Shown: positions 1-47,591, counted from the first letter of the stretch. The stretch: DNA of 47,591 bases from a virus (IMGVR_UViG_3300045988_142058), one strand, 5' to 3'. The notes: generated by a model from the sequence alone, not told the origin. A program made the numbers and translations.

Positions 1-1517
1 GAGGTTGTCACGTACTTGTTATCGCCTGAGACATCAACTGACTTTGTTGCAGCAATTGATGCCATATTAATAGCCGAAGTTTGCCCAACCAGAGAATCGT
101 TGCAGACAAACTTTCCATAGGTAAAACCAAAACTATCCGTCCCGGTTTCGGGAACATCCATATTTGACGATCGCCCCCAACTGGCAGGGCTTTCCGAATT
201 GAGCATGTAGTTCGTTCTTTGCCCCTCAATAAGCAGGCCATCACGTTCAAATCGTGGCTCGTCAATGGCAGCCTCTGTCAGCACACCAGATTTATTTATA
301 TAGGTTGCTTTCGATGCGCGTTTAAACTTTACAACCTTATCGCCAGGCATCGTTATTTCATCATCACCAATAACAATCTTTTTATATGACGGCGAAAACC
401 CCGTAATCATATCCAGTGAATCGTTAAACGGTATCCACACATCAGGTAGCGGTTGAATAATCTTCCGGGCATCCTCCAGTGGCAATGCTTCGATATCCGA
501 GGCTGTTAAAGTAATATCTGACGAACCGTCAAATGAAACGTTGTTAATCTTCCGTGCAGTTTTTAATTTCGTTGCGGTGTCGGCGTTCCCCGTCAGTGCG
601 CCGTTGAGTCCGCCGTTGAAAATCTGGCGTTCACTCCATGTGTTAGCCGTGCTCAACAGGGGGATCTTTTCACCGCTTGTGCCGAGTTCTCTTAAACCAA
701 GGTACTGGATAACAGCAAGGACACTTGTTTTAGCCAGAATATTACGGCCGACTGACGTTAAATCAGCCAGGGCTACTGTGTCTTTACCGGTAAAGTACGG
801 CAATTTATTTGCAGCCGTCGCAAGTCCTGCCAGAGCGGTGAGCGTATCATCTGCTGGTTGTTTTTGCTTTGCTAGGTCAAACACTTCTTTGACGGCTTTT
901 GGCGTTGCAGCGCGCGTTTCAGAAGTACTGTTAGTGTCACTACTGAGTTGAACAATGCCTTTTGAGGTTAAAGTTGCATCAGGATGATTACGTGATTGCT
1001 CATGTTTTACAATGGCTTGCTTAAGTCGCTTTGCTGAAACAGCTAGGGAATCATCTGTACCTGCATCAATTTCTTGTTCATTAGCAAATCTTGCTACTCC
1101 AACAACAGTTTCGGTTGCGGGCGGGTTAATAAACTCAACATCACCAAATGTAATGTTTTTAGTATCAAGATTTTTAATTGCTATATCACTTGATATTAAA
1201 GCAATTGTAGAAGATGCTTTATTTATTATTACTTGTTCTTGCGAGTATACAGCAAACAATGTTCCTTTATTTGTATACAAACCTATTGTATGGACAACAT
1301 ACTCATCTTTACTATCATCCTTCGCAGTTACATGAATGGTATCAGGAGAAACGACTTTGCCTCCTATTGTGGTAAGTCGCTTTATTTCATCTGTTATTTC
1401 TGTTTGTGTGGTTGATGTGACATAATATCTACTACCTAAACCAACAGAAACGATCTCAACTTTATTTGTTCCAGTCTTGTTGGCATTAACCAGCTCCTGA
1501 CGCCCGGCGTCAGTCAT
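1..1517 (-). CDS. Tail fibre protein, N-terminal ~505 codons; gene continues across the circular junction into 46668..47591
   Basis: Minus frame open from ATG at 1517 (possible GTG at 1538 with AAGGA RBS) to position 1; absent from ORF track because no stop in window. Manual translation MTDAGRQELVNANKTG... contains fibre-type repeat [27 protein letters not shown]. Confidence 0.7.
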   Translation of the reverse strand, partial: MTDAGRQELVNANKTGTNKVEIVSVGLGSRYYVTSTTQTEITDEIKRLTTIGGKVVSPDTIHVTAKDDSKDEYVVHTIGLYTNKGTLFAVYSQEQVIINKASSTIALISSDIAIKNLDTKNITFGDVEFINPPATETVVGVARFANEQEIDAGTDDSLAVSAKRLKQAIVKHEQSRNHPDATLTSKGIVQLSSDTNSTSETRAATPKAVKEVFDLAKQKQPADDTLTALAGLATAANKLPYFTGKDTVALADLTSVGRNILAKTSVLAVIQYLGLRELGTSGEKIPLLSTANTWSERQIFNGGLNGALTGNADTATKLKTARKINNVSFDGSSDITLTASDIEALPLEDARKIIQPLPDVWIPFNDSLDMITGFSPSYKKIVIGDDEITMPGDKVVKFKRASKATYINKSGVLTEAAIDEPRFERDGLLIEGQRTNYMLNSESPASWGRSSNMDVPETGTDSFGFTYGKFVCNDSLVGQTSAINMASIAATKSVDVSGDNKYVTT

Positions 1518-1568
1518 CGTAAATAATAATTTACTCACGCTTAATTCCTTGAATTAACAAATCGCAAA

Positions 1569-2150
1569 TTAGCACTCACCAATTAATCGTACATAAGACA
1601 CAGGCTGGAAAGCACCGACAATACCAACACCACCTGAAACATTGGTTGCTTGCGAAAATGTAAATAGTGTTCTTGCCGACTTTGCACTCTTGATACTTCT
1701 TAACGTATCCTCCAACATCTCTTTCGAAGGAACAGCACCATGAAAAGAGTTAATCGAAGCAACAATTGAGGCTGTATATGGTTCGCCAGGTGGTGATGTT
1801 TCAAACCATTCTGTTATGTTTACCTCTCCACCCAAGCTATTTACTACATCTTCAACCGCTGCCCTTGTACCCTTTATTCGCTTTGTTCGTATTATTGATT
1901 TAAAAACAGAACGCTTTAACGATACAGGCCAACTATCCCTCCATGTATCAGCATTCCATTGCCAAGCTAAATGATCGAGAACAACTGAGTCCAGGTTATC
2001 AACAACGCTATATATTTCTGTCTTATATATTAAATTGTTAATTGCTTGTAGTTCATCATCGATAGCTTTCGACATAGCTATCACGTTCGGATCTCTAGCT
2101 AAGTTAGGAGGTAAAACATCCAACAAGCTAACATTAAAGATATCAGCCAT
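1569..2150 (-). CDS. Tail/baseplate protein, P2 gpI-like
   Basis: 193 aa; sits between baseplate J-like gene and tail fibre, the P2/Mu gpI position; 8-nt overlap with upstream gene. Confidence 0.5.
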   Translation of the reverse strand: MADIFNVSLLDVLPPNLARDPNVIAMSKAIDDELQAINNLIYKTEIYSVVDNLDSVVLDHLAWQWNADTWRDSWPVSLKRSVFKSIIRTKRIKGTRAAVEDVVNSLGGEVNITEWFETSPPGEPYTASIVASINSFHGAVPSKEMLEDTLRSIKSAKSARTLFTFSQATNVSGGVGIVGAFQPVSYVRLIGEC

Positions 2151-3267
2151 CCTCTAACCCCGCATACTGGCAATTTATATTTCTCTCTCTGGCGACCTGC
2201 GTCTCTCCAACCACAGTAAATACAGGACTTGATATTTCTAATCTTTTAGCCCCAGCATTTTTTAAACGTTGAATAATTTCATCTGGATTTATATCTCTTC
2301 CCATAACCGAACGTTGCCATTGTTTATACTCATCAATAGCTTTCTCAACCTCACTTTGAATTAATGTTGTTCTGTTTTTGTCCGATGAGTTAATCCAGTA
2401 TTTAATTATTATATCGTATTCAATGCTCTCTGGTTTCTTAACAAGAACTTTATCTGTGAATGGTCGAATATTAGTTGCAGAGAGAACGCTATTTATCTGC
2501 TCCAATAGTTCATCAGAAGGTATATCTCCGTTCTCTAACAAAGAACGGATTTCTACAGTTCCGGGCGATGGTGTATATACATTCACATCTTTTATATTCT
2601 GATTGGCTGTTCTTGTCCAATATTTATAAGAATCCTCCGGCCCTGCTGTAGACAGTTTTTCCGGCGACAGTTTTATTCTTTCAGCATAATTATCATCTGA
2701 CTCTGTATCAGCACCAGAATTAGATGTTGTTAGATTCCTTACGCTAGAAACATACGGCAACGGAGTCACCAACTCATTTATTTGCCCTGGTAAAAAGCCA
2801 TTCCCCGATAAACCAGGTATAACAGCATATCCTGAGACTGTACCAACTGTTTTCCCAGCAGGTATTTCCAACAAAACATCTGTTTGGAAAATAACACCAT
2901 TTCCAGTTGAAACTTGAGTGCCAGAAGGTATTGTATATATCCCCGATAATTTTGTTGACAGATTAAACTCAAATGTAGTCAAGGCAGATTGAGCTTCCAG
3001 CCTAGGCGTATCCGTCAGATAGCCTATATGGTCGAGATATTCACCTTCACCATATGTAAGAAGGTTTTGTTTTGCAGAAAAATCGATAGCTTTTCTTTGC
3101 TGTATAATAATCTCACACAATGATAAGATGAATAATCTACGTGGATCAGCAGGTGCTAATGTTTCACCTGTTATACTCTCAAAAGCTCTGATTGAACGAG
3201 TTGTTATATCAGTCGGGTTAGAATCTGCGAAAGTAATATCTGGCAAACCACCACGCGGCAACGTCAT
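2143..3267 (-). CDS. Baseplate J-like protein
   Basis: 374 aa; size and position downstream of gpW-like gene match baseplate J family. Confidence 0.65.
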   Translation of the reverse strand: MTLPRGGLPDITFADSNPTDITTRSIRAFESITGETLAPADPRRLFILSLCEIIIQQRKAIDFSAKQNLLTYGEGEYLDHIGYLTDTPRLEAQSALTTFEFNLSTKLSGIYTIPSGTQVSTGNGVIFQTDVLLEIPAGKTVGTVSGYAVIPGLSGNGFLPGQINELVTPLPYVSSVRNLTTSNSGADTESDDNYAERIKLSPEKLSTAGPEDSYKYWTRTANQNIKDVNVYTPSPGTVEIRSLLENGDIPSDELLEQINSVLSATNIRPFTDKVLVKKPESIEYDIIIKYWINSSDKNRTTLIQSEVEKAIDEYKQWQRSVMGRDINPDEIIQRLKNAGAKRLEISSPVFTVVGETQVARERNINCQYAGLEDG

Positions 3268-3584
3268 TCTCTAACTCCTATCACAAGTTTTGGCCTAATA
3301 AAACCATCAGAAACGTCCGTTCTTTCAAAAGTAACAGAATGGATAATCGCTCTAGGCTCAAACTCACTAATTTTTTGAATTATTTCTCGTGTTGCTGTAG
3401 CAATAAAAATTGGACTGGGGCTATCAACAAGACTTGAATTAACTCCTAATTTTCTGGCATATGGTACAGTGCCTATCTGAGTATTAATAATAGTAGAGAC
3501 ATTTTGCAAAACTTCTTCTACAACTGTTTTGGGCGACCAATCAATCGAGTAAGAAGGTGATGATATGGTAAACGTATTATTCAT
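3264..3584 (-). CDS. Baseplate wedge protein, gpW/GP46-like
   Basis: 106 aa; overlaps neighbours by 4 nt; V-W-J-I gene order. Confidence 0.5.
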   Translation of the reverse strand: MNNTFTISSPSYSIDWSPKTVVEEVLQNVSTIINTQIGTVPYARKLGVNSSLVDSPSPIFIATATREIIQKISEFEPRAIIHSVTFERTDVSDGFIRPKLVIGVRE

Positions 3585-4048
3585 AATAATTTACCTAACG
3601 CACTTCTAGTTTTTGACTCTATATTGCCAGTAATATCAACTAATGCTTCTTTCAGAGAGGTCTGTCCGACTTCCTGTAATTTAATGCCAACGATAATCAC
3701 TCGTGGATTCCCAGTTGGACCGAAATAAGTCCATGATTCCTCTATATCTGTAATTATAAAATTACCAAAATACTGAATGCCAATTACAACAGGATTTACT
3801 TCCTGAATTGATTGCATTGTCCTAAGTAATGAAAGCGCAGCCAATGGAACAATGCCAAGTGTTGTATCCAACCGCATATTAAAACTAACTTCATCCAGAT
3901 CTGGACCTATATCCTCCAGAACAGGTTTAAGCCCAATAACATCATGGCGCGCTACACGACGCTTTGACGTCCTTTTAAAATTGTTGAACGTATTCACCAC
4001 TATTGATGAGGCAACAAAAGGCATTGTACCAAGCATACCCACAATCAT
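3581..4048 (-). CDS. Hypothetical tail/baseplate-associated protein
   Basis: 155 aa, translationally coupled within the baseplate cluster. Confidence 0.4.
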   Translation of the reverse strand: MIVGMLGTMPFVASSIVVNTFNNFKRTSKRRVARHDVIGLKPVLEDIGPDLDEVSFNMRLDTTLGIVPLAALSLLRTMQSIQEVNPVVIGIQYFGNFIITDIEESWTYFGPTGNPRVIIVGIKLQEVGQTSLKEALVDITGNIESKTRSALGKLL

Positions 4049-4665
4049 GCCTGAGCCTCCGTTGTCGGAGCGTATTCCCCCTGAGCTGTGTGATGGTGGC
4101 CTTTAGATTTAATCCCATCAACATCTATATCACCATCAACAACCTTAACATTCCCAGAAATTGTAGCTGCAACACCTCCAGCAGAAGATCCTTTCATTCC
4201 ACCTTTGAAGGTTAGTAATCCTTCAACTGTAGCATTTCCGGTAATGATGGTTTCTGGAGCATCAATAGTTACGGTTCCTGTAGCCTTAACGGTTACATCT
4301 CCGACAGCATCAACAAGGAGTAAATTAGATTCTCTGTCTATCTCAATACGAGTTCCGTTATTAAATCTAATGACGCGTTTATTAACAGTATTAGATGGCG
4401 GCTTCTGTGTTTCATCATAAAAACTACCAAGAATAAAACCTTGTTGCGGCCCTGCGGGATGAAAGATACACAAAACTTGCTCACCAATATCTGGCATCCA
4501 GTAATCAGCATTCTTATCTGTATTTTTCACAATAACTGATAACTTTGCCGAAGTGACGTTATCCTGATCATCGAAAGTAACTCTTGCTGTAACATCACCA
4601 TCATCAATATCAGAAACAACGCCAACTCTTATAATCTGACGTAATAATGTTTCTAAATCATTCAT
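4045..4665 (-). CDS. Baseplate spike/assembly protein V-like
   Basis: 206 aa; N-terminal OB-like region (VGVVSDIDDGDVTARVTF), Gly-rich beta-helical C-terminus with HHH. Confidence 0.6.
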   Translation of the reverse strand: MNDLETLLRQIIRVGVVSDIDDGDVTARVTFDDQDNVTSAKLSVIVKNTDKNADYWMPDIGEQVLCIFHPAGPQQGFILGSFYDETQKPPSNTVNKRVIRFNNGTRIEIDRESNLLLVDAVGDVTVKATGTVTIDAPETIITGNATVEGLLTFKGGMKGSSAGGVAATISGNVKVVDGDIDVDGIKSKGHHHTAQGEYAPTTEAQA

Positions 4666-4667
4666 AA

Positions 4668-5669
4668 TTAATACCCATTAATTACTCTTCGGATATCAAT
4701 CGAGGTGGTATAACCACTAACCCCAATTGAATGCACAGCTTTCGATATAAGATATTTTCCAGAAAATGAACCGAATCCGTCCAGATTTATAGTTACACCA
4801 GCTACCAATCTGGTGTCTCCAACCAATACTAAAGATCCGGTATTTTGATATCTATTTTTAAGCCGCAAAGCAGCCTTTGCCTTACGTTTTGCTTCATCTA
4901 AATTAGCTACCAGTTTTCTTATCTTAAGATTCGACCCTTCTTCTACGGATGGATCTACCCAAGTATACGAAAGCGACTTTCTTTTTTTAGGTACGCGATA
5001 TTTGCACGTGCAACTTTTATACAAATCTGTAGATTGTGTGCTAAAGCTATATCTGATTATCTCATCAATACCTAACGTAAGCGTAGCGATAGGATCTTTT
5101 TGCTCAAACATCTCTTGAGCAAATATTATTAATTGGCTATCAGTGACCTTTAACGACAACCCTTCATCCTGGCAAAGTCGATGGAGAAATTTTAAATCGC
5201 TTTCCTCCATTTGATCTTCACGCGCATAATATGGATTACTATCACCATCAATAAGAAACAACAGTTCAAGGTTAGCTAATTTAGCTATAGAAGTTGCTAT
5301 ATCTTTAAGAGTTGTTTTTTCCCATGCATTACTTTTTAAATCACGTCTAATGCCTGATGAAACAGGAACAGAAACAGCAGTCACCTCAACAACAGAAGGT
5401 GGTCCAGAGCAAGTTATGCCATCTACCTGGAATTTCCCGCACTCAAGGACGATTTGATTTATAGGCTTAAAGCTCAAATCAATAAAATCACCCTTTTTAG
5501 GTGTCCAGTCTCCAGACCATTTCCCATCATCATTTTTTAATATAATAGAAATATCATCGACCTGACCATCTTCATTATCTGTATAAGACATTGACAAAAC
5601 ATCAGGTGACATATGAGCGGTAATATTTACATTCTGATATATAACATCAAAAAGCGTTTTACGTAACAC
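4668..5669 (-). CDS. Tail protein, P2 gpD-like
   Basis: 333 aa; follows tape measure and gpX-like gene as in P2-type tails. Confidence 0.5.
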   Translation of the reverse strand: MLRKTLFDVIYQNVNITAHMSPDVLSMSYTDNEDGQVDDISIILKNDDGKWSGDWTPKKGDFIDLSFKPINQIVLECGKFQVDGITCSGPPSVVEVTAVSVPVSSGIRRDLKSNAWEKTTLKDIATSIAKLANLELLFLIDGDSNPYYAREDQMEESDLKFLHRLCQDEGLSLKVTDSQLIIFAQEMFEQKDPIATLTLGIDEIIRYSFSTQSTDLYKSCTCKYRVPKKRKSLSYTWVDPSVEEGSNLKIRKLVANLDEAKRKAKAALRLKNRYQNTGSLVLVGDTRLVAGVTINLDGFGSFSGKYLISKAVHSIGVSGYTTSIDIRRVINGY

Positions 5670-5877
5670 TATTGCGTCTCCACGGAGGCAAATTGTTTAC
5701 TGATATTGGCATAACCGGAGCATCAGGAACTTTAAGAATAATTCCCGCAGAAAAAAGCACCGTGAAGCGGTGCTCAGTATTAGCATCAATAAGAAGATAA
5801 GACAGGTACTCATTACCATACAACTTTAACGCGATACTATCCCATGAGTCCCCTTGAACCGTTCTATAATCATCCAA
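5659..5877 (-). CDS. Tail protein X-like (LysM-like fold)
   Basis: 72 aa; YRTVQGDSWDSIALKLYG motif resembles P2 gpX/LysM; directly after tape measure. Confidence 0.45.
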   Translation of the reverse strand: MDDYRTVQGDSWDSIALKLYGNEYLSYLLIDANTEHRFTVLFSAGIILKVPDAPVMPISVNNLPPWRRNSVT

Positions 5878-8662
5878 AACTTAATCTCCGTTGTTGGAAC
5901 ATATGAGCACTCAATTTCTTCTCAAAATCAGAATATCCAGCATCTAATGCTCTTTTAGCTGCCGCCTCAGTTTCCTTTGGTGAACCAGCCGGAAGATTGA
6001 TTACAGGTGAATAGGTTATTCCACCAGTCACAGCGTTAACGTTCTGGCGAGGTCCAGAAGTCCCGGCGGCAGATATCCCGTGAGGTGATAAATTTGATTG
6101 CCCGAACTTGGTTGCTATTGCATTTTGTAAGCTGTTATTCCTGCTAACACCTGATGCCAGAGTAGTCATTATTGCACCACCTGACTTTGTTAGCTGTGAG
6201 AATGGACCTTTTTTCGCGTCAGAGAACGGTAAATACTCACGTACAGAAGAAAAAACGCCTTTCACTTCATTAATTAAAGCATTTGCTTTTGATTTTATCC
6301 CAGTGATTAACGTCTCAATTATTTTTGCACCTGACTCACTCCAGTTTATTCCAGATAAATAAGCCGTTACAGATTGGAATGCTCTTATAAAGAGTCCAAC
6401 TGGTGAAAAACGCATAAAAACAGATACCAGTGTATCTATGATTTTCTTTCCTGTTTCGCTCCAGTTAATGCCAGAAAGGTAATTTGTTGTAAGTTTAAAT
6501 GCTTTAATTAAGAACGGAAGCGGAGACATCCATTTAAAAGCACTAATTAATGTACTGTAAATTCTTACTCCTGCCGAACTCCAGTTTATGTTGGAAAGAT
6601 AATCCCATGCTTTACCAAACATAGATATAATCCATCCATTGAGGTCAAAGTTTAAGATAAAGTTTTTTATAGCCTCAAATGATTTAACTGTATATTCCTT
6701 AACAGAAGGCCAAACTCTGACAGCATAATCTCTGATCTTATCCCAATTCTGATAGAGCAATATTCCTGCGGCAACCAGTGCAGATATAGCCATCTGAATC
6801 CACCCGAAGGGTGTTAGCTTTGTCGCTACAGATAAAGCCAGCATAGCTACCCTACACGCTATAACCACACTTTTCATGGTTAGAAACGCACCTGCCGCCA
6901 TCACAATCTGAGACACAAAATTGGGGTTGTTAGCTACAAATTCACTAATTTTTGTAATCAGCGGAACCAAAACACTAAGCGCGGCATTCAAAGCTGGTTG
7001 CAAGGCCTGACCAAAACTTAATGATGCATTGCTAGCCTGAATACGTAATTGTTTCAATCGCTCCGCATTGTCTTTCGTTATATTGGCAAAATCGCGGTCA
7101 ATAACAGCACTTCCAGCCCCAAGAGATGTTGCTTTGATTCTCTGGTATTCCTTCCAGTTTTGAATCATCGGACGAACAAAGTTCTGAACCTGCATATCGC
7201 CAAATAGCTCACCAAGTAACTTCTGATCTCCGTTCTTAGTCATTTTCATGACAGAATGCATTGCAGCTTCGAATGGATTCTTCCCTTTTTTCTGCGCTGT
7301 TGTGACAATTTTATATAAATCTACACCGAAATTTTTCTTTGCTTTTTTTAGTGTTTCAGGGGAAAGTATTTTCGCCAAAAAGTTGTTCATATTATTAGCA
7401 GCCTCATCCGAAGTTGCAGCACCTTTGCGAGCTATCTGCAAAGCTGCCCCCATCGTCGCGGCGGCTTCTTTACCTCCCATTTTTAATGCCTGGAACTGAG
7501 CACCAAGCACAGGAAGATTTTTGGCCATATCTTTAAATTCAAAGTTTCCCTCTTTCCCTGCCTGAACCAGAATCCCCATTGCAGACTTCATTTGAGATGG
7601 ATCAATCTTCAATGAGTCACTTAATGTAAATGATGCTTTCGAGACATCGAGGATATCAGAGCCAGTAGCTGTAGCTGTTCGCCCAATAGTTAGTAGATTC
7701 GCCTGAGCCTCTTTATAATCCTGCCCAGCAGCGACGAGAAAACCCTGAGCGGCCTGAATATCAGATGCAAACTGGTTGGTGGCCGTTCCGGTAACAAGCA
7801 TCGCCTGCCCCATCGCCTGAACTTCTTCCGGCTTCATATCTGCCGTAAGACCAATCATTTTGTTTTCACGATTGAAATTTGCTGCATTGTTAGCAGCAGC
7901 AAATGCACCAGCCGCTACAGCACCAGTTTGTAATCCTGACCTTACAAGTTGACTCTTTGCCTCACCAAGATGCTCTCGCTTCAATTCACGCTGCCTTTCC
8001 AACGCGCGGTTTAACTCCTCCTGAGCACGTTTTACTGCAAGAACATTTTTCCGTGCTTCAGCCAACGCATTTTTATAGCTGTTAATTTTATCAATACGTT
8101 GTTTTTCTAATGCCCGGTTAAGTTCCTCCTGCTGTTTTTTCACTTGCTGAACATTTGCTCTGGCTAAAGCCAAAGCTGTTCTGTAGCGGTTAACCTGCTC
8201 AACGCTACGGGCCTGAGCCTCACGATTACGATCAATGCTTGCTTTAAGCTCTTTCTCTCTTGAGGCCAAAGCTCTGGCAGATGTATCAGCTCCCTGATAC
8301 GCAGACTTTAAAGCGGCCAGTTCTTCACGCTGAGAACGTAGTGATGCTCGTAAATTTGATGAATGTGTTTTTGCCTTCTCAAAGTCACGAAGCATCGCTC
8401 TGGTTGGATTGGCCGTGTTTTTTATTTGCTTCTGTAACTCTTCAACGCGAGCGGCAGCTTTATGATATTCGAGGGCAGTCTGTCCAACCTTTACTTTTAC
8501 AGATTGTAGCTTTTGAATTTCCCCATGTTCTTTCGTTAATCCAGCAAGCTCGGCATTTAATTTAGCAACAGCCTGATTAGCTGTAGTAAAACTTTTGGGG
8601 AGAGAGGCGGCAACTTTGCCGCCAATTTCAAAAGCCAGCTTAAAGTTCTTATTGCTGGCCAT
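5870..8662 (-). CDS. Tail tape measure protein
   Basis: 930 aa; coiled-coil N-terminal third with repeated QQVKKQQEELNRALE segments, hydrophobic middle, repeated W-rich C-terminal motifs; follows chaperone pair. Confidence 0.8.
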   Translation of the reverse strand: MASNKNFKLAFEIGGKVAASLPKSFTTANQAVAKLNAELAGLTKEHGEIQKLQSVKVKVGQTALEYHKAAARVEELQKQIKNTANPTRAMLRDFEKAKTHSSNLRASLRSQREELAALKSAYQGADTSARALASREKELKASIDRNREAQARSVEQVNRYRTALALARANVQQVKKQQEELNRALEKQRIDKINSYKNALAEARKNVLAVKRAQEELNRALERQRELKREHLGEAKSQLVRSGLQTGAVAAGAFAAANNAANFNRENKMIGLTADMKPEEVQAMGQAMLVTGTATNQFASDIQAAQGFLVAAGQDYKEAQANLLTIGRTATATGSDILDVSKASFTLSDSLKIDPSQMKSAMGILVQAGKEGNFEFKDMAKNLPVLGAQFQALKMGGKEAAATMGAALQIARKGAATSDEAANNMNNFLAKILSPETLKKAKKNFGVDLYKIVTTAQKKGKNPFEAAMHSVMKMTKNGDQKLLGELFGDMQVQNFVRPMIQNWKEYQRIKATSLGAGSAVIDRDFANITKDNAERLKQLRIQASNASLSFGQALQPALNAALSVLVPLITKISEFVANNPNFVSQIVMAAGAFLTMKSVVIACRVAMLALSVATKLTPFGWIQMAISALVAAGILLYQNWDKIRDYAVRVWPSVKEYTVKSFEAIKNFILNFDLNGWIISMFGKAWDYLSNINWSSAGVRIYSTLISAFKWMSPLPFLIKAFKLTTNYLSGINWSETGKKIIDTLVSVFMRFSPVGLFIRAFQSVTAYLSGINWSESGAKIIETLITGIKSKANALINEVKGVFSSVREYLPFSDAKKGPFSQLTKSGGAIMTTLASGVSRNNSLQNAIATKFGQSNLSPHGISAAGTSGPRQNVNAVTGGITYSPVINLPAGSPKETEAAAKRALDAGYSDFEKKLSAHMFQQRRLSFG

Positions 8663-8667
8663 TAGTA

Positions 8668-8850
8668 TTAATCCTCATTAAACACGTCAATCCATGCGAC
8701 GATTCGCCTCAACCGAAGCGAAAGCCAGTAGGATATAGGTGTTGATTGAGATGATTGAGATAGAGAACTCGCGGCCCTCATTATTTGCTTATCAATAGGT
8801 TTTTGCTCATCAAAACCTACGAGAGCAAAAAATTCTGTACCTTTTGGCAA
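8668..8850 (-). CDS. Frameshift extension of tail assembly chaperone (E'-like, -1 frame)
   Basis: -1 frame ORF overlapping 3' end of 8817..9098; reading FFALVG... after slip at heptamer 8826..8832. Confidence 0.5.
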   Translation of the reverse strand: MPKGTEFFALVGFDEQKPIDKQIMRAASSLSQSSQSTPISYWLSLRLRRIVAWIDVFNED

Positions 8851-9098
8851 ACTTTAACAAAGTCTTTCGCTGGCAATCCATTCAGATACTCTATCGGACG
8901 GCCAATACAGCGAGCAGCCAGAGCAACGTGGACTTTATGATCAAGTGATGTTTGAACTGTAACATGCCCTTGAGATTGTAGTAAGTCCGATACTTCTAAA
9001 ATATCGCTGCCTTTTAGGTTGTCTAAATCAAGGTTGAGTTCAGTCACCGGCTCGAAGTCTTCAAAACGATACTCTTTACTTAATTTAACGGTTTCCAT
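8817..9098 (-). CDS. Tail assembly chaperone, gpE-like
   Basis: 93 aa between tube and tape measure; ends in slippery T_TTT_TTG. Confidence 0.55.
   Translation of the reverse strand: METVKLSKEYRFEDFEPVTELNLDLDNLKGSDILEVSDLLQSQGHVTVQTSLDHKVHVALAARCIGRPIEYLNGLPAKDFVKVCQKVQNFLLS
8826..8832 (-). other. Putative -1 programmed frameshift slippery heptamer T_TTT_TTG
   Basis: Zero-frame codons aaT TTT TTG two codons before chaperone stop; -1 frame continues 58 codons to 8668. Confidence 0.5.
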
Positions 9099-9107
9099 TT
9101 TGTCACC

Positions 9108-9629: not shown

Positions 9630-9645
9630 AGCAACCTCCTATTAT

Positions 9646-32589: not shown

Positions 32590-32592
32590 TGT

Positions 32593-37200: not shown

Positions 37201-37206
37201 TAATCG

Positions 37207-37753: not shown

Positions 37754-37772
37754 GTTTCTGCCTACCAATAAA

Positions 37773-37921: not shown

Positions 37922-38082
37922 TGCGTAGAGCACTGTTACGCCCAAATTATGGTGGGTCGTACAGGGGCGGAGAAATCCGCGCCGGTTCGTCATTGTGTCC
38001 GGTAAGGCTAACCCTGTACGGCTCACCACCATTTGATTAGCCTCGAATGGCGGTGATAGTTCCATATACTGGAGATATCACA

Positions 38083-38274
38083 ATGACAAACCTACCCCAT
38101 GACTATTACGTCAACCTCGTAAAGATCCTTCTCAAGAAAGCCTCATACGCCGATAAATTCCGCCTGGCTGAAATCATCGAGCGCGAAGCTATGCGCATCG
38201 CCAGCAACGATAACGCTGTTTCTGACGCAAAAATCTCCCTCGTAACCAAAGTAGTTATGGGAGGTGCAAAATGA
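38083..38274 (+). CDS. Hypothetical small protein upstream of antirepressor
   Basis: 63 aa, GGAGA RBS, stop overlaps antirepressor ATG. Confidence 0.4.
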   Translation: MTNLPHDYYVNLVKILLKKASYADKFRLAEIIEREAMRIASNDNAVSDAKISLVTKVVMGGAK

Positions 38275-39452
38275 AAACGCTTCCGACCGTTAACACCCTA
38301 CAGCCTATCCTGCATAACCAGCTCCCCGTTATCACTACTGAACTACTGGCGCAATTGTATGGAACCGAGCGCCAACGTCTGACAAACAATTTCAATAGAA
38401 ACAAGGAACGTTTTATAGAAGGTAAACACTTTTTTAGGATAGAAGGTAAAGAGTTACGAGAGTTGAAGAACAAAAACTCTTTAAGAGTTCCTGTGAGAGT
38501 AGTTAACGAACCATCTTTAAGAGGGTTACAAATTCCCCCGAAAGTTCGCTCCCTCATCCTCTGGACAGAACGCGGGGCTGCACGTCACGCCAAAATGCTT
38601 GAAACTAACCAAGCGTGGGATGTGTTCGAACGGCTGGAAGACTGCTATTTCAACCAGAACGCACAAACGGCCGCGACCGTTACCGTCTCGCCAAGCAATG
38701 CTCGTGAGGTTGTCGATACGCTCAACGCCAAACCGATGTTTTACATTAAGGTGTGCAATAACGAGCCACTCACAACCTCAGCCGATGTTGCCCAGGCATT
38801 CAGCACCACAAACAATTCCATCGTTATGGCCATCGATGCGTTACGCATTCCTCGCACAGCTGCGGCGCGTCATTTCTTTAAAGAGCAACGACCGTTGGAA
38901 GGAAGCGACCGCGAAATAACAATCTATCGCATGACAAAAGACGGATTTACCTTGCTCATGGAGAGCATCGACGGTCCAAGCGTGAAAGATATCAAGCTGG
39001 CCTACATTGAAGCCTTTAACGCTATCAGCAGCGTGTTAAAAACACAGTACGAGCGTGATCTGGCTAAACGACTGTACCAAGAAAAAACGATTATCCGCGC
39101 GGCAACAGAGCATAATCGGCTATTAACGGAACCGAACTACAGGAAGGAACTAATCAAGGAGTTTGACAAGGCAACAGGGAAAACCAAAGCGGCGCTAAAT
39201 CTGCCAGCAATGACTCAGGAAAATGTGATATCAGCCTTACTTCTTGATCTGCTCAGAAACGCCAGAGCACTTATCAGCTTTGACGAAAACCTGAATCCTC
39301 AGCTCAAGCTACTACCACCGACAGGCAAAGTAGTCGACCAAGCTGATCACAACAGCATACTCAGCGTACTGGATGCAAACCTGCCAGCCAAGACACTACA
39401 GGATCTGATAAAAACATGTGCTGATAAGCTGGCACAGAAAAGCAGACCATAA
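38271..39452 (+). CDS. Antirepressor (ORF6N/ANT N-terminus, Rha-like C-terminus)
   Basis: 393 aa; N-terminal LPVITTELLAQLYGTERQRLTNNFNRNKERF; terminator after stop. Confidence 0.75.
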   Translation: MKTLPTVNTLQPILHNQLPVITTELLAQLYGTERQRLTNNFNRNKERFIEGKHFFRIEGKELRELKNKNSLRVPVRVVNEPSLRGLQIPPKVRSLILWTERGAARHAKMLETNQAWDVFERLEDCYFNQNAQTAATVTVSPSNAREVVDTLNAKPMFYIKVCNNEPLTTSADVAQAFSTTNNSIVMAIDALRIPRTAAARHFFKEQRPLEGSDREITIYRMTKDGFTLLMESIDGPSVKDIKLAYIEAFNAISSVLKTQYERDLAKRLYQEKTIIRAATEHNRLLTEPNYRKELIKEFDKATGKTKAALNLPAMTQENVISALLLDLLRNARALISFDENLNPQLKLLPPTGKVVDQADHNSILSVLDANLPAKTLQDLIKTCADKLAQKSRP

Positions 39453-40261: not shown

Positions 40262-40534
40262 TCATTTGATCCCTTGTTCCAATTCTGACGACACTTTAAC
40301 CTTTTCCCATACAAGGGTTTGCAGCCTTAACAGAATCGCGTCTTTATCAAGGTGTGAAAGATCCTTCACCATATCGTCAAACGACAGAACGCGAATGGCC
40401 ATCTCAATGACCCTCGGCGGCTCCCCCTTCTCATATCGCTTATATGTAGCCAACGATATCCCAAATTCTTCGGCGGCTCGCTCCTGCGTCCAGTTCATCC
40501 CACGACGCCATAATTTCAATTCATAACCCGTCAT
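40262..40534 (-). CDS. XRE-family HTH DNA-binding protein
   Basis: Start at MTGYELKLWRRGMNWTQERAAEEFGISLATYKRYEKG with AGGAGG RBS; perfect IR upstream. Confidence 0.55.
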   Translation of the reverse strand: MTGYELKLWRRGMNWTQERAAEEFGISLATYKRYEKGEPPRVIEMAIRVLSFDDMVKDLSHLDKDAILLRLQTLVWEKVKVSSELEQGIK

Positions 40535-40563
40535 AGCACCCTCCTCGCACAATATTAACACTC

Positions 40564-40588
40564 GCAAAGTGTCAAAATGACACTTTGC
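40564..40588. promoter_or_regulatory. Perfect inverted repeat GCAAAGTGTCA-aaa-TGACACTTTGC
   Basis: 11-bp arms, ~25 nt upstream of RBS of HTH gene 40262..40534; no U-run. Confidence 0.4.
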
Positions 40589-41563: not shown

Positions 41564-41863
41564 TTAGACATGGAACGCTACTCGCTTTCCTGTAGGAAGC
41601 TCAACATCCAGGCTTAATTTGCCTCCCATAGCTTCAACGTAACGCTTTAATGTCGCCAGCTTTAAATCATTTCCGCGCTGCTCCAGCTTTGTTACTGCTG
41701 GCTGGCTTATACCCATCGCCTCAGCAACCTGTTTTTGTGATAACTGGAGTTCTTCACGCATCATCTGCAAGCCGACCTCAAGAATCATCTCATCTGCCAT
41801 TTCTTTAATTCGCGCCTGGCTTTCAGGTGAACGGCTGGCAATCACCTCATCTAATGTTCTCAT
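41564..41863 (-). CDS. HigA-like antitoxin (XRE HTH)
   Basis: 99 aa; HTH LSQKQVAEAMGISQPAVTKLEQ; downstream of and coupled to toxin gene. Confidence 0.65.
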   Translation of the reverse strand: MRTLDEVIASRSPESQARIKEMADEMILEVGLQMMREELQLSQKQVAEAMGISQPAVTKLEQRGNDLKLATLKRYVEAMGGKLSLDVELPTGKRVAFHV

Positions 41864-42210
41864 TACTTGCTCTCCAGTGTGTTCAGATGTGCTGCAAACT
41901 CATCCTCAGCTATACGCACCAGTTTTTCATAAAACCGTTTATCGTTACTTTTGTCTCCTGCACAAAGAACGATGGCCCGGCGAATCGGATCGAACGCATA
42001 AAAGGCTCTTATCGGACGGCCAGAAAACTGAACGCGAAGCTCTTTCATATTTTTGTACCGAGAACCTTTTACGGTATCGGCATATGGCCTGGGTAACTCA
42101 GGTCCGTAAACCTGTAGCTTTTTCAAATCAGCCAAAACCTTTTCCTGAAGAGCGTCTTCTTGCTCATTTAGCCAGTCGTCAAATCGCTGGCTAAAAAGTA
42201 CCGTCCACAT
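41863..42210 (-). CDS. RelE/HigB-like toxin (phage Gp49-like)
   Basis: Start at ATG 42210 (AGGA RBS); toxin-first gene order. Confidence 0.6.
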   Translation of the reverse strand: MWTVLFSQRFDDWLNEQEDALQEKVLADLKKLQVYGPELPRPYADTVKGSRYKNMKELRVQFSGRPIRAFYAFDPIRRAIVLCAGDKSNDKRFYEKLVRIAEDEFAAHLNTLESK

Positions 42211-42243
42211 GCTCAATCCTATAACCTGTAGTTTATATCACTA

Positions 42244-42272: not shown

Positions 42273-42454
42273 GAAAAACGGGGCTATTTAACATAATGGA
42301 CGTTATCGGCACCACCGGATCACCGTTCATTGTCGGATCTAAAAAATCCGCTCAAAAGATCATGTTTTCCTGGGCGTTTTCCACCGTTTTTTATGTTGCT
42401 TATTTGTTAATGAAATCTCGTTTTCAGTTTCGCCTCATTTTCGACGCGAAAGCC

Positions 42455-42745
42455 CTATTTTTGTGACTTTACTCCTGGCATATGGACTTCCCAGCGACGA
42501 ATCCCCATAGCTGCGCAAAAATCAGCCACATAATTCAATCCCGCCCATTCGCGGATACCACCACGGGCTTTTTCAATGAAAACGGCAATCCCTTTTTTAT
42601 TGAGAGCAAAAAGCCGCCAGCTTTTTGTCACTTCGTCCTGGGTAGCCACAACACAAGTGAAAGCTCCCATGCGATACAGGTCCAAGAACTCTTTGCGTGT
42701 TTTGCGTACAAGTTCCATAACAAACCTCATATTTGCATGTTTCAA
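42455..42745 (-). CDS. Hypothetical protein
   Basis: 96 aa ORF between origin region and higBA. Confidence 0.35.
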   Translation of the reverse strand: MKHANMRFVMELVRKTRKEFLDLYRMGAFTCVVATQDEVTKSWRLFALNKKGIAVFIEKARGGIREWAGLNYVADFCAAMGIRRWEVHMPGVKSQK

Positions 42746-43089: not shown

Positions 43090-43670
43090 ATTTACTACAT
43101 TGCGTATAAGACAAGTTTTCTATGTCTAATAGGAAATGATGTTTCTTACGTTTTATCGCGTTCTGATGGCTACTGTGTGCGTATTTATCGACGTTTATCG
43201 ATAAGGCTCGCCCCTTCCTCCTGCAAAGCCCGGCCGTAGGCCTTATTTCGGCCTTATATAAATTGATTTTGTATAGTTCGAAACGTGCCGTTTCGAAAAG
43301 GATGATCAGGCTGCTCCATGCCTCCGGCAAGTGCCGGAGGAGGTATATATTTGAGCGTAGCGACTCGAACCGGCGCGAGCTTTAGCTCGCTGCAAGGGCG
43401 AACATATTCACAGGCAAAGCCTGCGTAAGTTAAATAAAGAAAGTCTTAATAAAAGAAAGTGATTTTGCATTTATTTGTTTAGTGCATCTATTATAAAAAA
43501 CCATTTGCATATACATATCAAAACTGTGGATAACTTTATTAGCCGATGCCTGTGAAGGCGATATTTTTGCTGTGTTCAGGTTTAGAGAAAATTAATTTAG
43601 ATTGTTTTTTGAACAAACATTTTATTGCGACGTAGATAATCCTCCGGTAAAACCGGATTCATCATTAAGG
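43090..43670. other. Candidate replication origin downstream of repA
   Basis: ~580 bp without credible ORF; DnaA box TGTGGATAA at 43525..43533; AT-rich stretch with ATTTGCAT repeats; perfect palindromes 43277..43297 and 43321..43340; TTTATCGA direct repeats. Confidence 0.45.
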
Positions 43671-43674: not shown

Positions 43675-44523
43675 TTAATGTTGGAGTGATTTCCAGGTCT
43701 TTCTTAACCTGTTATAACGCTGCTCAACGAGGGATCGTAAATATGCAAGGTCAGCTCCAGGATACATGCCATCAGCAAATTCCTGGCTAACCTCTCTAGT
43801 GATTTGATGACGAAGTTCGGCCTCTCCCTTTTCCCGAACAAGACGCGCAGCTCTCTCCGCTGCTTTCTGTTTTGCCTTTATCTCTCTGGCCGTCTTCCTC
43901 TGACGCCATACATTCTCCATCTGCTCCTGAATAACAATACGCTTATAATCAGCCTCCGTTATCGCTTTTTTAAGCCGTTCGCTATTCTTCGCATTGAAGT
44001 AATTAAGTTTCTGGCTAACCGCACGTCTCCATGCTTGTTCAGTAATACCAACGGTTTCCAGCAGTTGATCACGAATCTCTATTTTCGCTGGCCAATACTG
44101 TTTATTCACCCGATCCCAGCGACGTTCATAATCAATAAAACCTAACTCTTTCAGTTGCGACAACGCCCTTGTACAGCGCGTTATAGACTTGTTCCCAGCT
44201 TCGGATACGGTAGACAGGCCGCAAAAATCAGCCAACGCCTCAGCACTGGCCAGAACCCGCTTAGAAATGATGTTTACATGGTGCAAAATCGCAGCAATCA
44301 CAGCATTAATTGCCCGACGACGATGCTCGTTTATCCGGCGTTTCCGCTCTGACGGTTGATTAACGTAGAACGCAACCTCACACGTAAGATCACGACCATT
44401 AATGCGCTGTAAAGCATCAGATAACACCAGCGGCAGCTTGTGCGTATGGTGCTTTGGAGGCTGGAACTCCGGCGACAAATTACAAACGTAAGCTGAACGT
44501 AGAGACGGCATTGGTCTATCCAT
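43675..44523 (-). CDS. repA: Replication initiator RepA, IncFII RepA1-like
   Basis: ATG at 44523 (MDRPMPSLRS...); block ...ALADFCGLSTVSEAGNKSITRCTRALSQLKELGFIDY... matches IncFII RepA1 pattern CGL-T-S-AG--SITR-TRAL--L-ELG-I-Y (from memory). Frame open upstream to 44685. Confidence 0.8.
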   Translation of the reverse strand: MDRPMPSLRSAYVCNLSPEFQPPKHHTHKLPLVLSDALQRINGRDLTCEVAFYVNQPSERKRRINEHRRRAINAVIAAILHHVNIISKRVLASAEALADFCGLSTVSEAGNKSITRCTRALSQLKELGFIDYERRWDRVNKQYWPAKIEIRDQLLETVGITEQAWRRAVSQKLNYFNAKNSERLKKAITEADYKRIVIQEQMENVWRQRKTAREIKAKQKAAERAARLVREKGEAELRHQITREVSQEFADGMYPGADLAYLRSLVEQRYNRLRKTWKSLQH

Positions 44524-44535
44524 ATGTTCGCTCTT

Positions 44536-44650
44536 GCGTCCACGGAAAACCAACGTATAATGGGAGTTGTCGAGGCGCCCATGGATATGTTTGTTGGTTT
44601 TCCGTGGATGTCGCAAGAAGCCCGCAGATTTATCTGCGGGCTTTTTGTTT
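44536..44650 (+). ncRNA. Candidate CopA-like antisense RNA in repA leader
   Basis: Plus-strand intrinsic terminator (9-bp stem 44620..44628/44633..44641 + TTTTTGTTT) antisense to repA leader; 16-bp stem-loop 44539..44608. 5' end not defined. Confidence 0.4.
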
Positions 44651-44690
44651 CCATATCTGGTCGTTTTCCAACCAGACACCCACAATCGTA

Positions 44691-44705
44691 ACCACGTTAC
44701 GTGGT
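44691..44705. promoter_or_regulatory. Operator-type ACCAC-gttac-GTGGT in repA leader
   Basis: Same half-sites and spacing as immunity operators; ~100 nt downstream of putative repA promoter. Confidence 0.5.
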
Positions 44706-44811
44706 TTTAAGAGAACTCTACCACAACACTTTCGGTCATGCACGAAGTCTCTCGCTAATCGAACGATAATCCACCAGTAAAAGGATCTAAATCGGATCTC
44801 GTGTTGCGAGC

Positions 44812-44839
44812 ATCATACTACTGGCCTAACTCCAGTCAA
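44812..44839 (-). promoter_or_regulatory. Putative repA promoter TTGACT-16-TATGAT
   Basis: Minus strand -35 (44834..44839), -10 (44812..44817), just after Tfa stop. Confidence 0.45.
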
Positions 44840-44861: not shown

Positions 44862-45389
44862 TTATTCTGGTTTGTCTGGCCATTCGGGGTTTGCTGTGTC
44901 CACGCGGCTGACAAGAACACTGTAGCGTTCCCATGCTTCCAGTCGTGTGCGTTCCTCGTCTGTTGCCATATTCAGCCTGACAGCGCGTTCCAGCGGCTGG
45001 ATGACTGATTCAGCTTCGGAAAGCAATGCGGCCTTTTGTGATTCGGCTTGTTGTTGCTGTTCGTCTGCCGTATAAATCCGTTTAACTACAGCTCCATCCT
45101 TAAACATCCACTTTCCTGAATCATCAGCGCGGCGGTTGGCTGTAATATCAGGAACCTCAACGACGCTAAAACCTTCAGGGTTAAGCGTGGAGGCATCTTT
45201 AGTGATGGCGACAATAATATTATTTGCATCGTAAACAATCTTTATTGTGTCTGGCTGAAAGTTTTTCACTTCCTCATACCAGTTTTTTCCGTCCTCAGAG
45301 TAAAGCCAGATAACTCCGTGTTTCTTTGTTAACTCATACTGTTCCAGTGTTTTAGCGTTACCCGCTTTTATGTTCTTTAAGTGCATCAT
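44862..45389 (-). CDS. Tail fibre assembly protein (Tfa-like)
   Basis: 175 aa after second fibre gene; C-terminal ...[13 protein letters not shown]. Confidence 0.6.
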
Positions 45390-45390
45390 A

Positions 45391-46380
45391 TTAAACGCTC
45401 GCTACATTATACCAGGTGCCATTTATATACTTTTGAACGGGTCTGTAATAAACGCCCGCTATATTATCGGCAGAGTTGGAACCTGTATCCTGAACATTAA
45501 TACCAGACAATACATGACCTGACGGGCACTGGAAATTCCATGTTTGCCAGTTGTTTACTCCATAATATTGCTGTGAACCAAGTCGAACATCTTTCACATA
45601 ACGGGAATCAAAGTTACCGTAATCCGAGGGGTTAACACGCCCTGTAATATTTATGGTTTTATTACTTTGAATGCTGCCGGAGACAAAGCGCATAACATGG
45701 ACGTTATTAGCATAAACGTCCAGATTACCGTCGCCATTTTGTTTAAAGCCCGTGTCATTATCACCCAAAACAATCGAGTTACCGCCAAGAGCACTGGATG
45801 TTCCGATACCCAGTGCACCATTCAATTGACCACCAGATAACGACAGTGCACCGACATCTCCCGCTGTAGGTTTTCGCGTTGTGGTATAAAACTCAGACCA
45901 GTCAGCCTCGAATCCGTAACCGTCACGAGCAGAACGATAAAAAATACCGCCGTTATTATAATTAACGCGGAACTGGGCGGCGGGACAACTTCCTTCACCG
46001 ATATTAAAATGAAGAATTAACGTTGATGCCCCACCAATAGTTGCGTTATAGGCTCCGCTACTCCAGTTCCATCCAACGGCTTTATCATTCGCAACGGTAT
46101 CTCCTGTTTTTCCTGAAGCAAATGCACCAATATTTTTCGGCGTCAGGTTAATATCTGATGTTCCATCAAACGAAACGGAATTAATCTTTCTCGCGGTTTT
46201 CAGCTTTGTAGCCGTTGAGGCATTGCCGGACAGCTCACCAGAAATGCCACCAACAACTGTTAGATCACCAGTTATTGTGCCGCCTGAACTTTCCAGTTTT
46301 TTAGCAACATCACTCTTAATAGAGTCGATTTCTTTTTTCAGATTAGTTATATCTGCTGGTATCGTTGTCACTGTTGCCAT
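45391..46380 (-). CDS. Second tail fibre protein
   Basis: 329 aa; [27 protein letters not shown] shared with first fibre; Gly/Asn-rich distal region. Confidence 0.65.
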
Positions 46381-46389
46381 ATTAATTCC

Positions 46390-46668
46390 TTACGCCCATT
46401 CCCGCAGCGGTTGTTCTAATTTAACTTCAAAACCATCAAACATTTGTTGTTTCAAACTGTCGTTTAAAATACGAACATTAACAAAGAAGCCATCATTTTT
46501 AATCACTGTTGGTTCTTCGTTCTCGCCGTTTGGTATTTCGGTATATGTAATACCTACAACATCAAGAAGGATGTTGTTTTGCAGTTCTTCATTATCGTGC
46601 CAGGATATACTCTCTAAAAAAGAGTCGTATTCTTCCCTGTCTCTGAATTTCAACGTAATATCTTTCAT
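46390..46668 (-). CDS. Hypothetical protein (possible chaperone for first fibre)
   Basis: 92 aa directly after first fibre stop. Confidence 0.35.
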   Translation of the reverse strand: MKDITLKFRDREEYDSFLESISWHDNEELQNNILLDVVGITYTEIPNGENEEPTVIKNDGFFVNVRILNDSLKQQMFDGFEVKLEQPLREWA

Positions 46669-47591
46669 TAAATAACCTCAGCCATTTGTTGGTCTGTTAA
46701 TGCTTTATGCCATATTCTGAAATTCCTGATATGACCAAATAGATGACGTGCCCCTGATGTGGTTTGACCTCCTATTCTAATAAAGGTCCGCGTTTTTACG
46801 CCCGTCCATTCCGTTTCAATGGTTTTAGTAGCCTCACCGTTAGAAACTACTCGTTTAGTACCGTCAGAATAAATATTAAAACCACCAATGAATTTTCGAA
46901 CATCCGTTCGACCAGTAAACAAACTAGAAACGTAACTACTTGTCGACGCTTTATAAGTTTGCATATAAAGCTGACCGTAATATCTCTCGGTTGTGTTAAA
47001 AGCGTATGTGATTGACTCAATAGGCGGCACACCAGAAAAATCAAAAATACGCGGTGCTACATTAGGGGGAATATCGCCCCAATTCCTGTTAACCTCGACC
47101 AAACAAGTAAGCGGTCTGTTATAAATGTTGTTTTCGGTCGGGATCGTAACCATATCACTCGCACGAGTCGCCGCCGTCGTTCCTGATATAATAAAAGATG
47201 ATACACAAGGCCCATTTTCTACTTGTGGGGTGGCCAGATAAATATAGTCACCAGATACGGTTGCCCCGCCCTGCTTAGGAGAATACTGTATCTGAGAACC
47301 TATTTTTAACTCCCCATCAATTGCCTGAATTGTTGCCTCAGCAAAAATCCATCCTGTAGTTTCATCCTTCCTGACTCGTGCCGTAATTCTACCGGAAGCA
47401 CCACCTGTCATATTAATTTCAAGCGTTTGTGTATCAATATACGCATCACCAAGAAAAGTTGTTGCGCTACCGTCATACTTATCAAACCGTATACGTAACC
47501 TTACCTGTCGTTCTGTTTTAAAACGGCATGAGGTTGTCACGTACTTGTTATCGCCTGAGACATCAACTGACTTTGTTGCAGCAATTGATGC
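46668..47591 (-). CDS. Tail fibre protein, C-terminal portion (same gene as 1..1517)
   Basis: Same reading frame as 1..1517 across the 62-bp junction; complete gene ~2379 nt (~792 aa). Confidence 0.7.
   Translation of the reverse strand, partial: ASIAATKSVDVSGDNKYVTTSCRFKTERQVRLRIRFDKYDGSATTFLGDAYIDTQTLEINMTGGASGRITARVRKDETTGWIFAEATIQAIDGELKIGSQIQYSPKQGGATVSGDYIYLATPQVENGPCVSSFIISGTTAATRASDMVTIPTENNIYNRPLTCLVEVNRNWGDIPPNVAPRIFDFSGVPPIESITYAFNTTERYYGQLYMQTYKASTSSYVSSLFTGRTDVRKFIGGFNIYSDGTKRVVSNGEATKTIETEWTGVKTRTFIRIGGQTTSGARHLFGHIRNFRIWHKALTDQQMAEVI
47530..47591. repeat. 62-bp terminal redundancy identical to 1..62 (circular closure)
   Basis: Exact identity of the two window ends. Confidence 0.95.

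Follow-up and report, generated by a model that had tools for sequence, protein, structure and literature searches.

The window analyzed here is the whole of contig IMGVR_UViG_3300045988_142058, a 47,591-nucleotide stretch of viral DNA in which head, tail, packaging, and lysis genes share one molecule with genes for plasmid replication, partition, and addiction. A first-pass annotation had read this gene set, with no recognizable integrase, as that of an extrachromosomal prophage. Searches of Pfam, PHROGs, and NCBIfam recovered the head, tail, lysis, and plasmid genes at or near the places where that annotation had put them, and the gene set, the failure to find an integrase, the circular closure of the molecule, and the occurrence of its relatives on plasmids all bear the reading out. 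We consider it highly probable that the window is the genome, complete and probably functional, of a temperate myovirus that lysogenizes as a low-copy-number circular plasmid and belongs to a lineage common in Escherichia.

Circular genome and its lineage

The last 62 bp of the window (47530..47591) are an exact copy of the first 62 (1..62), forming a terminal direct repeat inside a tail-fiber gene. This repeat is the assembly overlap of a circular contig, and the true genome size is 47,529 bp. When one copy is removed and the circle is closed, a minus-strand open reading frame (ORF) runs from position 1538 across the junction to 46668 and encodes a tail fiber of 799 amino acids (aa), colinear with the fiber gene of plasmid NZ_CP020497.1. 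Given the terminal identity and the restored fiber ORF, the window therefore represents a complete circular molecule opened within a gene, without chromosomal flanks. ORF callers applied to the linear window split the fiber gene and so miss the 799-aa product.

The virion, packaging, and lysis genes form a complete set by their Pfam and PHROG assignments, and neither frameshifts nor insertion sequence (IS) insertions were seen in the window. The earlier failure to recognize an integrase held up, since no Pfam recombinase family was matched by any ORF of at least 170 aa, all of which were scanned apart from the tail fiber. Likewise, the hin invertase of a relative, used as a tblastn query against the window, returned only noise.

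The G+C (GC) content is 38 to 44% in the half that carries the tail and head genes (1..24000) and 45 to 49% in the regulatory and plasmid half (24000..47591), a step that suggests a mosaic origin. Taken with the assembly overlap that the contig carries, the same step could be read as the mark of an assembly chimera, or of a cointegrate between a small plasmid and an unrelated prophage. Over its full length, nevertheless, the window is colinear with phage records and with plasmids finished independently of one another, dozens in number, and its plasmid and phage genes are interleaved, with par lying between cI and ant and repA lying beside the tail-fiber genes, so that we give an artifact or cointegrate of this kind almost no credence.

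In a sample of 5,426 complete Escherichia coli genomes, the virion module was found in 72 (about 1.3%), and 101 of its 102 places were on plasmids of 47 to 52 kb. The region containing the replicon and a Xer site was found at 116 places, all of them on plasmids and none chromosomal. Beyond E. coli, relatives were seen in E. albertii, E. fergusonii, Klebsiella, and Salmonella. Plasmid NZ_CP020497.1 (48,172 bp) is 99.0% identical to positions 1 to 24000 over 100% of that stretch and ~98% identical to the right half over about 66% of it. Among the carriers is the quality control strain ATCC 25922, whose plasmid CP009073 is 48,488 bp long. A separate record of that strain, NZ_CP032086.1, is a 94,204-bp plasmid with three matching places, while other assemblies give 48,488 bp; the 94-kb record may be a multimer or a misassembly.

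Near-identical genomes have also been deposited as phages, namely, Yersinia phages vB_YpM_39, vB_YpM_41, and vB_YpM_44, with Y. pestis EV76 as the host. All 23 packaging, head, and tail genes of vB_YpM_41, together with its lysis genes, are present at full length in the window at 98 to 100% identity. RepA of the two genomes is 97.7% identical, and ParA, an 82-aa protein encoded after it, the CI-like repressor, and HigB are each 100% identical. Lineage plasmids and the vB_YpM phages thus have in common the backbone, gene order, RepA, ParA, CI, HigB, the Xer site, the ryfA and C4 RNAs, and the operators described below, and lineage members differ from the window in the distal tail fiber and in an accessory stretch at ~39.4 to 41.5 kb. 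A hin invertase and an invertible fiber segment are present in the Yersinia phages and in the Salmonella relative, whereas the window has at that position a second, co-oriented set of fiber genes and no invertase. The invertible segment (21073..23931 in vB_YpM_41 and 20970..23828 in vB_YpM_44) lies in opposite orientations in these two records, and inversion is therefore active in the vB_YpM relatives.

Many lineage plasmids are annotated simply as unnamed plasmids, and the distal tail fiber of the window is unlike that of its phage-derived relatives and is not accompanied by an invertase. These observations could indicate a defective, domesticated phage-like plasmid that replicates but makes no infectious virions. 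Against this, the structural, packaging, and lysis ORFs are full length and share 98 to 100% identity with their counterparts in the phage deposits, no frameshift or IS insertion interrupts them, and closing the circle yields an intact fiber ORF. Domestication is accordingly a poor prospect beside a functional temperate phage-plasmid.

The phage records also point to a candidate packaging site. The vB_YpM_41 record opens with GGTCATTCGAAC followed by CCCGATG (record positions 1..20), while vB_YpM_44 carries the same 12-mer at its end (49019..49037) and has CCCGATG at its start. Because the two records were opened exactly 12 nt apart, we infer a 12-nt cohesive end, GGTCATTCGAAC on the minus strand, at 20361..20372 of the window. 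This candidate cos lies ~400 bp upstream of the genes for a ParB/Srx-domain protein, TerS, and TerL, a position that would be consistent with a lambda-type terminase. Linear virion DNA with this 12-nt cohesive end would be injected and would then circularize.

Replication, partition, and stable maintenance

The RepA protein encoded at 43675..44523 (minus strand) belongs to the IncFII superfamily. It matches PF02387 (E value, 7.5e-44) and passes the NCBIfam model NF040977, RepA_IncFII_LM (233 bits against a cutoff of 70). Against the TIGR03474 incFII_RepA equivalog it scores 82 bits, well short of the cutoff (446.9), and its identity to canonical IncFII RepA is about 32 to 37% over part of the length only. 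The Rfam CopA model gave no match at E values up to 5, and no CopB-sized ORF was found upstream of repA. Since the equivalog model was failed and no CopA or CopB homologue was found, this replicon is not a canonical IncFII one, and the label "IncFII-type" given to RepA in the first-pass annotation stands at the level of the superfamily but not at that of the incFII_RepA equivalog. The 282-aa form starting at 44523 is backed by the Pfam alignment and by the start chosen by the Prokaryotic Genome Annotation Pipeline (PGAP) in the Salmonella relative. The longest repA ORF (43675..44685) runs over the antisense RNA gene described next, as does the 326-aa RepA called by PGAP in relatives.

Opposite the repA leader, the plus strand at 44533..44652 encodes a candidate antisense (countertranscript) RNA made up of a long stem-loop and then a terminator hairpin with a U-run. 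Its predicted fold has a minimum free energy of −69.5 kcal/mol (z = −11.8), and four relatives keep the structure, the Salmonella one showing two compensatory changes. We regard this RNA as a candidate for the CopA type of countertranscript design, analogous to CopA but unrelated to it. Farther upstream, the putative control region of repA (44691..44839, minus strand) combines a copy of a phage-type operator (44691..44705) with a promoter-like site (44839..44812). Downstream of the gene, a candidate origin (43400..43560, minus strand) consists of a DnaA box and an AT-rich stretch: the sole perfect DnaA box of the element, TTATCCACA at 43525..43533, is 142 bp past the repA stop codon and adjoins a stretch of 27% GC. 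Its position is right for an R1-type origin and is suggestive in that respect. The window resembles R1/R100 IncFII plasmids in its PF02387 RepA and in having a candidate antisense RNA gene in the repA leader, and its origin candidate, with a DnaA box ~140 bp downstream of repA, may be a further likeness; it differs from them in having a phage-type operator where the CopB-controlled promoter would be. In plasmid replication, RepA would act at the downstream DnaA box and AT-rich origin, and the antisense RNA would throttle RepA synthesis.

The partition cassette (35883..36956, plus strand) comprises AT-rich repeats, parA, and the gene for the 82-aa protein. The repeats, a family of 24 to 32 nt, lie upstream of parA (35883..35995) and again between parA and its partner gene (36664..36703), and they are putative centromere sites. 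The 217-aa ParA (36011..36664, plus strand) is of the small Walker type, without an N-terminal DNA-binding domain, and matches families of the CbiA/ParA/MipZ type; its matches to ParF of TP228 (4dzz) and to another small ParA (5u1g) are weak, and it scores below the NCBIfam ParA_partition cutoff. The 82-aa protein (36708..36956, plus strand) is taken as its partner from its position after parA. In an AlphaFold2 model (predicted local distance difference test [pLDDT] score, 65), residues 1 to 40 are disordered and are followed by two helices, which is compatible with, but does not prove, a ribbon-helix-helix protein like ParG. Hence, where the first-pass annotation saw a ParA/ParG-like pair at 36011..36956, ParA is upheld and its partner is at most a candidate ParG-like protein. 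Segregation of the prophage plasmid would depend on the small ParA, the 82-aa partner, and the AT-rich repeats.

A dif/cer-like Xer site was found at 42286..42463 (minus strand). Its core (42286..42313) reads GGTGCCGATAA-CGTCCA-TTATGTTAAAT on the minus strand, that is, a XerC arm, a 6-bp spacer, and a XerD arm. Compared with the E. coli dif consensus, the core has two mismatches, and the XerD arm is perfect. No match to the core was obtained in 200 shuffles, and it is identical in four relatives. The ~150 bp on its XerC side are 87 to 92% identical to unannotated DNA in ~35 small (24- to 35-kb) E. coli plasmids, as would be expected of accessory sequences of the cer/psi type. Host XerCD would resolve dimers at this site and would replace a phage-encoded function like that of Cre, in which case the phage would need no recombinase of its own.

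A dif-like core with a perfect XerD arm and a 6-bp spacer might also serve for entry into chromosomal dif through XerCD, as in integrative mobile elements exploiting Xer (IMEX), which would make the circle no more than the excised or replicative form of an integrative element; the single chromosomal place among the 102 of the virion module fits such a life cycle. The region that contains the replicon and the Xer site was, however, on plasmids at every one of its 116 places, a full set of replication and partition functions is encoded, and the XerC-side flank is common to small plasmids, as for a cer/psi-type resolution site. An IMEX-like element is therefore very improbable, and a circular plasmid prophage whose dimers would be resolved by the host is the reading that we retain.

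Two putative addiction systems accompany these functions. The HigB/HigA-like pair named in the first-pass annotation was recovered, with a span of 41564..42216: a HigB toxin of the Gp49/RelE type (41863..42216, minus strand; PF05973, E value of 5.7e-23) and a helix-turn-helix (HTH) HigA antitoxin (41564..41863, minus strand; HTH_3, E value of 4e-10), with the toxin gene preceding the antitoxin gene. The other system is located beside the par genes, and each of the three relatives examined has it too, on plasmid and phage alike. It includes a toxin mRNA of the ryfA/timP type (37179..37475, minus strand), which matches Rfam ryfA at 143.5 bits against a gathering score of 80 and contains a 40-aa hydrophobic ORF (37207..37329, minus strand). 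A candidate TimR-like antitoxin small RNA (sRNA) is encoded divergently (37622..37760, plus strand) and is followed by an intrinsic terminator; its positions 37653..37670 pair with 37395..37412 of the toxin mRNA over 18 nt, with one G-U pair. This locus has the same design as the timP/TimR arrangement described in PMC7667032. The enterobacterial chromosomal timPR described there likewise has a small hydrophobic ORF, a divergent sRNA, 18-nt complementarity, and a terminator, while the window copy is borne on a phage-plasmid, and plasmid or phage copies are not discussed in the passages of that article consulted here. We regard the locus as a putative type I toxin-antitoxin system, and its place beside the partition genes suggests a role in plasmid addiction. 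HigBA and the timPR-type system would together provide postsegregational killing.

Immunity and the operator at repA

The immunity region centers on a CI-like repressor (34737..35393, plus strand). It joins an HTH_3 domain to a C-terminal domain whose likeness to S24 is weak and falls below the Pfam S24 threshold; in a manual alignment, it appears to lack the Ser/Lys catalytic pair. The early and cI promoters are divergent, and between them is a cluster of operators (34582..34699), with copies of ACCAC-N5-GTGGT at 34582 and 34685 and a degenerate copy at 34603. Seven matches to this motif within one mismatch occur in the window, against 0.79 expected by chance, and five of the seven are in regulatory regions (four perfect and one with one mismatch). 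Two of these five lie between cI and the early operon. The others are downstream of cI and before the par-containing operon (35436..35450, upstream of a 124-aa ORF at 35486..35860 and the par genes), before the operon that encodes isrK, C4, and the antirepressor (37773..37787, the site with one mismatch), and a short way ahead of the repA leader. Two Escherichia/Yersinia relatives keep the sites. In the Salmonella relative, whose CI is 65% identical, the spacers and flanks have diverged, yet the sites at the cI/early region, past cI, and at repA persist. Lysogeny would be held by the CI-like HTH repressor acting on the ACCAC-N5-GTGGT operators.

The module that begins at the site with one mismatch (37773..39452, plus strand) resembles immI of P1. 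It encodes an isrK-like RNA (37847..37920, plus strand; Rfam score of 65.7 against a gathering score of 50), a C4 antisense RNA (37945..38033, plus strand; 70.8 against 45), a 75-aa ORF after C4, and an antirepressor with ORF6N and Rha domains (38271..39452, plus strand). The ryfA, C4, and isrK RNAs exceed their Rfam gathering scores in three relatives as well as in the window. Matches to LexA boxes were no more numerous than expected by chance, and none was in a regulatory region. Since there is no LexA box in these regions and the catalytic pair of CI is apparently absent, we infer that induction proceeds via the antirepressor rather than by self-cleavage of the repressor, and the probable route would be the P1-immI-like module of C4 RNA and antirepressor.

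The early leftward operon (28360..34562, minus strand) encodes an Ead/Ea22-like protein, a DUF3560 protein, a DUF1064 protein, a nuclease of the P1 Ref type, and several proteins of unknown function. Family scans of this operon recognized no initiator and no helicase. The only hint of replication in the operon is a match between the C terminus of its DUF3560 protein and a PHROG that bears the annotation primase.

From where the operator near the repA leader lies, just upstream, and from its conservation, we tentatively propose that the promoter region of repA is under the control of the phage repressor. Control by CopB would in effect be replaced by the prophage repressor, which would hold RepA at a plasmid level, and induction would derepress repA, whose expression would outrun the antisense RNA and lead to lytic runaway replication. 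A single replicon would in that case serve both maintenance and lytic replication, which, if true, would explain why no separate lytic initiator is recognizable. A broader proposal, which is speculative in our view, is that the lineage of the window is a distinct and not formally described type of phage-plasmid, in which an integrative myovirus like X29 exchanged its integrase for a plasmid module and a single replicon became wired into phage immunity through the operator at repA.

Several points count against the view of the window as a functional phage-plasmid. The single DnaA box is not statistically significant, with at least one box present in 38 of 100 shuffles. The 82-aa partition partner had no match in Pfam, NCBIfam, or PDB sequences, and Foldseek returned nothing for it. 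The protein that binds the operators may be either of two HTH proteins, since a second small HTH_3 protein (101 aa) is encoded at 40262..40567 (minus strand). One of the 102 virion-module places is chromosomal. The virion origin of the vB_YpM genomes is presumed from what their records state, and virion production, copy number, and plasmid stability are likewise predicted from relatives or by inference. Even so, we hold to a complete phage genome maintained as a plasmid, for the reasons given above.

Known phage-plasmids and the virion genes

P1 provides the nearest functional parallel to the life cycle proposed here, being a myovirus whose prophage is a circular plasmid equipped with modules for replication, partition, and addiction. 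P1 and the window alike have immunity based on a C4 antisense RNA and an antirepressor, a Ref nuclease homologue, and operators scattered over the genome, and tail-fiber inversion is shared only by way of the relatives of the window. The differences are considerable: the window is half the size of P1, and its head and tail genes are unrelated. P1 has Cre/lox, an iteron-type RepA, ParA/ParB partition, and pac packaging, whereas the window has a site for the host Xer recombinases, a RepA of the IncFII superfamily with a candidate antisense RNA, a small ParA with the 82-aa partner, and a candidate cos for packaging. The window does not fall within the curated P1 groups, and megablast returned one Punavirus record; the matches outside the lineage that we inspected were pieces of tail-fiber genes.

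The ten curated types of phage-plasmid (P1_1, P1_2, N15, SSU5_pHCM2, pMT1, pCAV, pSLy3, pKpn, AB_1, and cp32) were also considered. Judged by size and morphology, a 47.5-kb myovirus fits none of those for which these were compared: the P1, SSU5-related, and AB types are about 95 to 122 kb, cp32 is 28 to 33 kb, and N15 is a siphovirus of about 55 kb. Identity with pSLy3 was rejected, as members of that type are siphoviruses related to SSU5 and about 110 kb in size.

Outside the lineage, the nearest relatives of the virion module among named phages are Vibrio phages X29, phi 2, Rostov 7, and vB_VpaM_XM1, whose TerL proteins are 63 to 65% identical to that of the window. Members of the X29 group share the order of a ParB-like gene, TerS, TerL, portal, ClpP, and capsid E genes leading to the sheath and baseplate, and their early region encodes DUF1064, Ead/Ea22, and Ant as in the window. 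The vB_VpaM_XM1 record, the only one compared in this respect, differs in having two annotated integrase genes and neither RepA nor ParA.

The combination of genes in the window is not a new one, because the lineage is abundant in databases, with near-identical plasmids by the dozen and several phage records, and one member, pDETEC34 (CP116126; 47,568 bp), is explicitly entered under "phage-plasmid" in Table S10 of PMC10100714. That table entry was the only hit in a literature search for a name for the lineage, although the 2018 work of Gilcrease and Casjens on circular plasmid prophages of Enterobacteriales may cover it, and none of six lineage accessions was present in the text-file supplements of phage-plasmid catalogues. 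The additions made here to the first-pass annotation are the candidate antisense RNA of the repA leader, the DnaA box with its AT-rich stretch, the dif/cer-like Xer site, the putative timPR (ryfA) locus, the P1-like C4/isrK-antirepressor module, the candidate 12-nt cos, and a palindromic operator that recurs in the immunity region, ahead of the par operon, and near repA.

Phage-plasmids carry genes both as viruses and as plasmids and are often overlooked by surveys of plasmids and of prophages. This lineage is present in a quality control strain yet, judged by size and morphology, lies outside the ten types used by current typing tools. At 47.5 kb and with all of its maintenance functions mapped, the element offers a compact model for coupling between a phage repressor and plasmid copy control; its value is thus in annotation and as a tractable model rather than in any new principle.

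The virion genes lie on the minus strand. The lambda-like head of the first-pass annotation was confirmed by a TerL of the lambda gpA type (16955..18811), a lambda-family portal, a ClpP-type protease, and capsid protein E (12619..13662). The head and connector module (11109..16943) also encodes four small connector proteins, a DUF6148 protein, and a decoration protein that is gpD-like by a weak match. TerS (18817..19377) was assigned by a PHROG match, and a ParB/Srx-domain protein (19368..19958) is encoded within the packaging genes (16955..19958). The contractile tail and baseplate module (1569..11109) was assigned by Pfam as P2 type and encodes Tail_P2_I, baseplate J, a W-like protein, the baseplate V spike, the gpD hub, tail protein X, the tape measure, an assembly chaperone, tube FII, and the sheath. 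No Mu-specific family was seen among the tail-gene matches of the window, so that only the P2 half of a tail first called P2/Mu-like is retained.

The N-terminal two-thirds of the main tail fiber is encoded at 1..1538, with a distal part (1..455) that resembles lambdoid side tail fibers, and its C-terminal part is encoded at 46668..47529. The remaining fiber genes (within 44862..47529) encode a tail-fiber assembly protein (44862..45389), a second fiber-like protein (45391..46380), and a 92-aa ORF, all on the minus strand.

On the other side of cos, three minus-strand genes (20516..23248) encode a protein with a match to a PHROG labeled minor tail protein, a fusion of ParB_N and methyltransferase domains, and a second ParB/Srx protein. 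Three ParB_N/Srx-domain proteins thus surround the terminase genes (19368..19958, 21252..22631, and 22625..23248), and one of them is the methyltransferase fusion. These proteins are not the partition system, and the label "ParB" given by PGAP could mislead plasmid typing. Farther along the minus strand is a gene for an MT-A70 DNA methyltransferase (25234..25821), and methyltransferases were the only systems returned when PADLOC was run on the accessory ORFs. Plus-strand ORFs at 39418 to 40526 are disfavored, given that the genes of relatives in that stretch run on the minus strand. The lysis cassette (26499..27981, minus strand) contains two holins, a GH108 endolysin with a peptidoglycan-binding domain, and a 92-aa ORF. 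Between the methyltransferase gene and this cassette is a tRNA-Met gene (26130..26205, minus strand; anticodon CAT), which is kept in all of the relatives checked.

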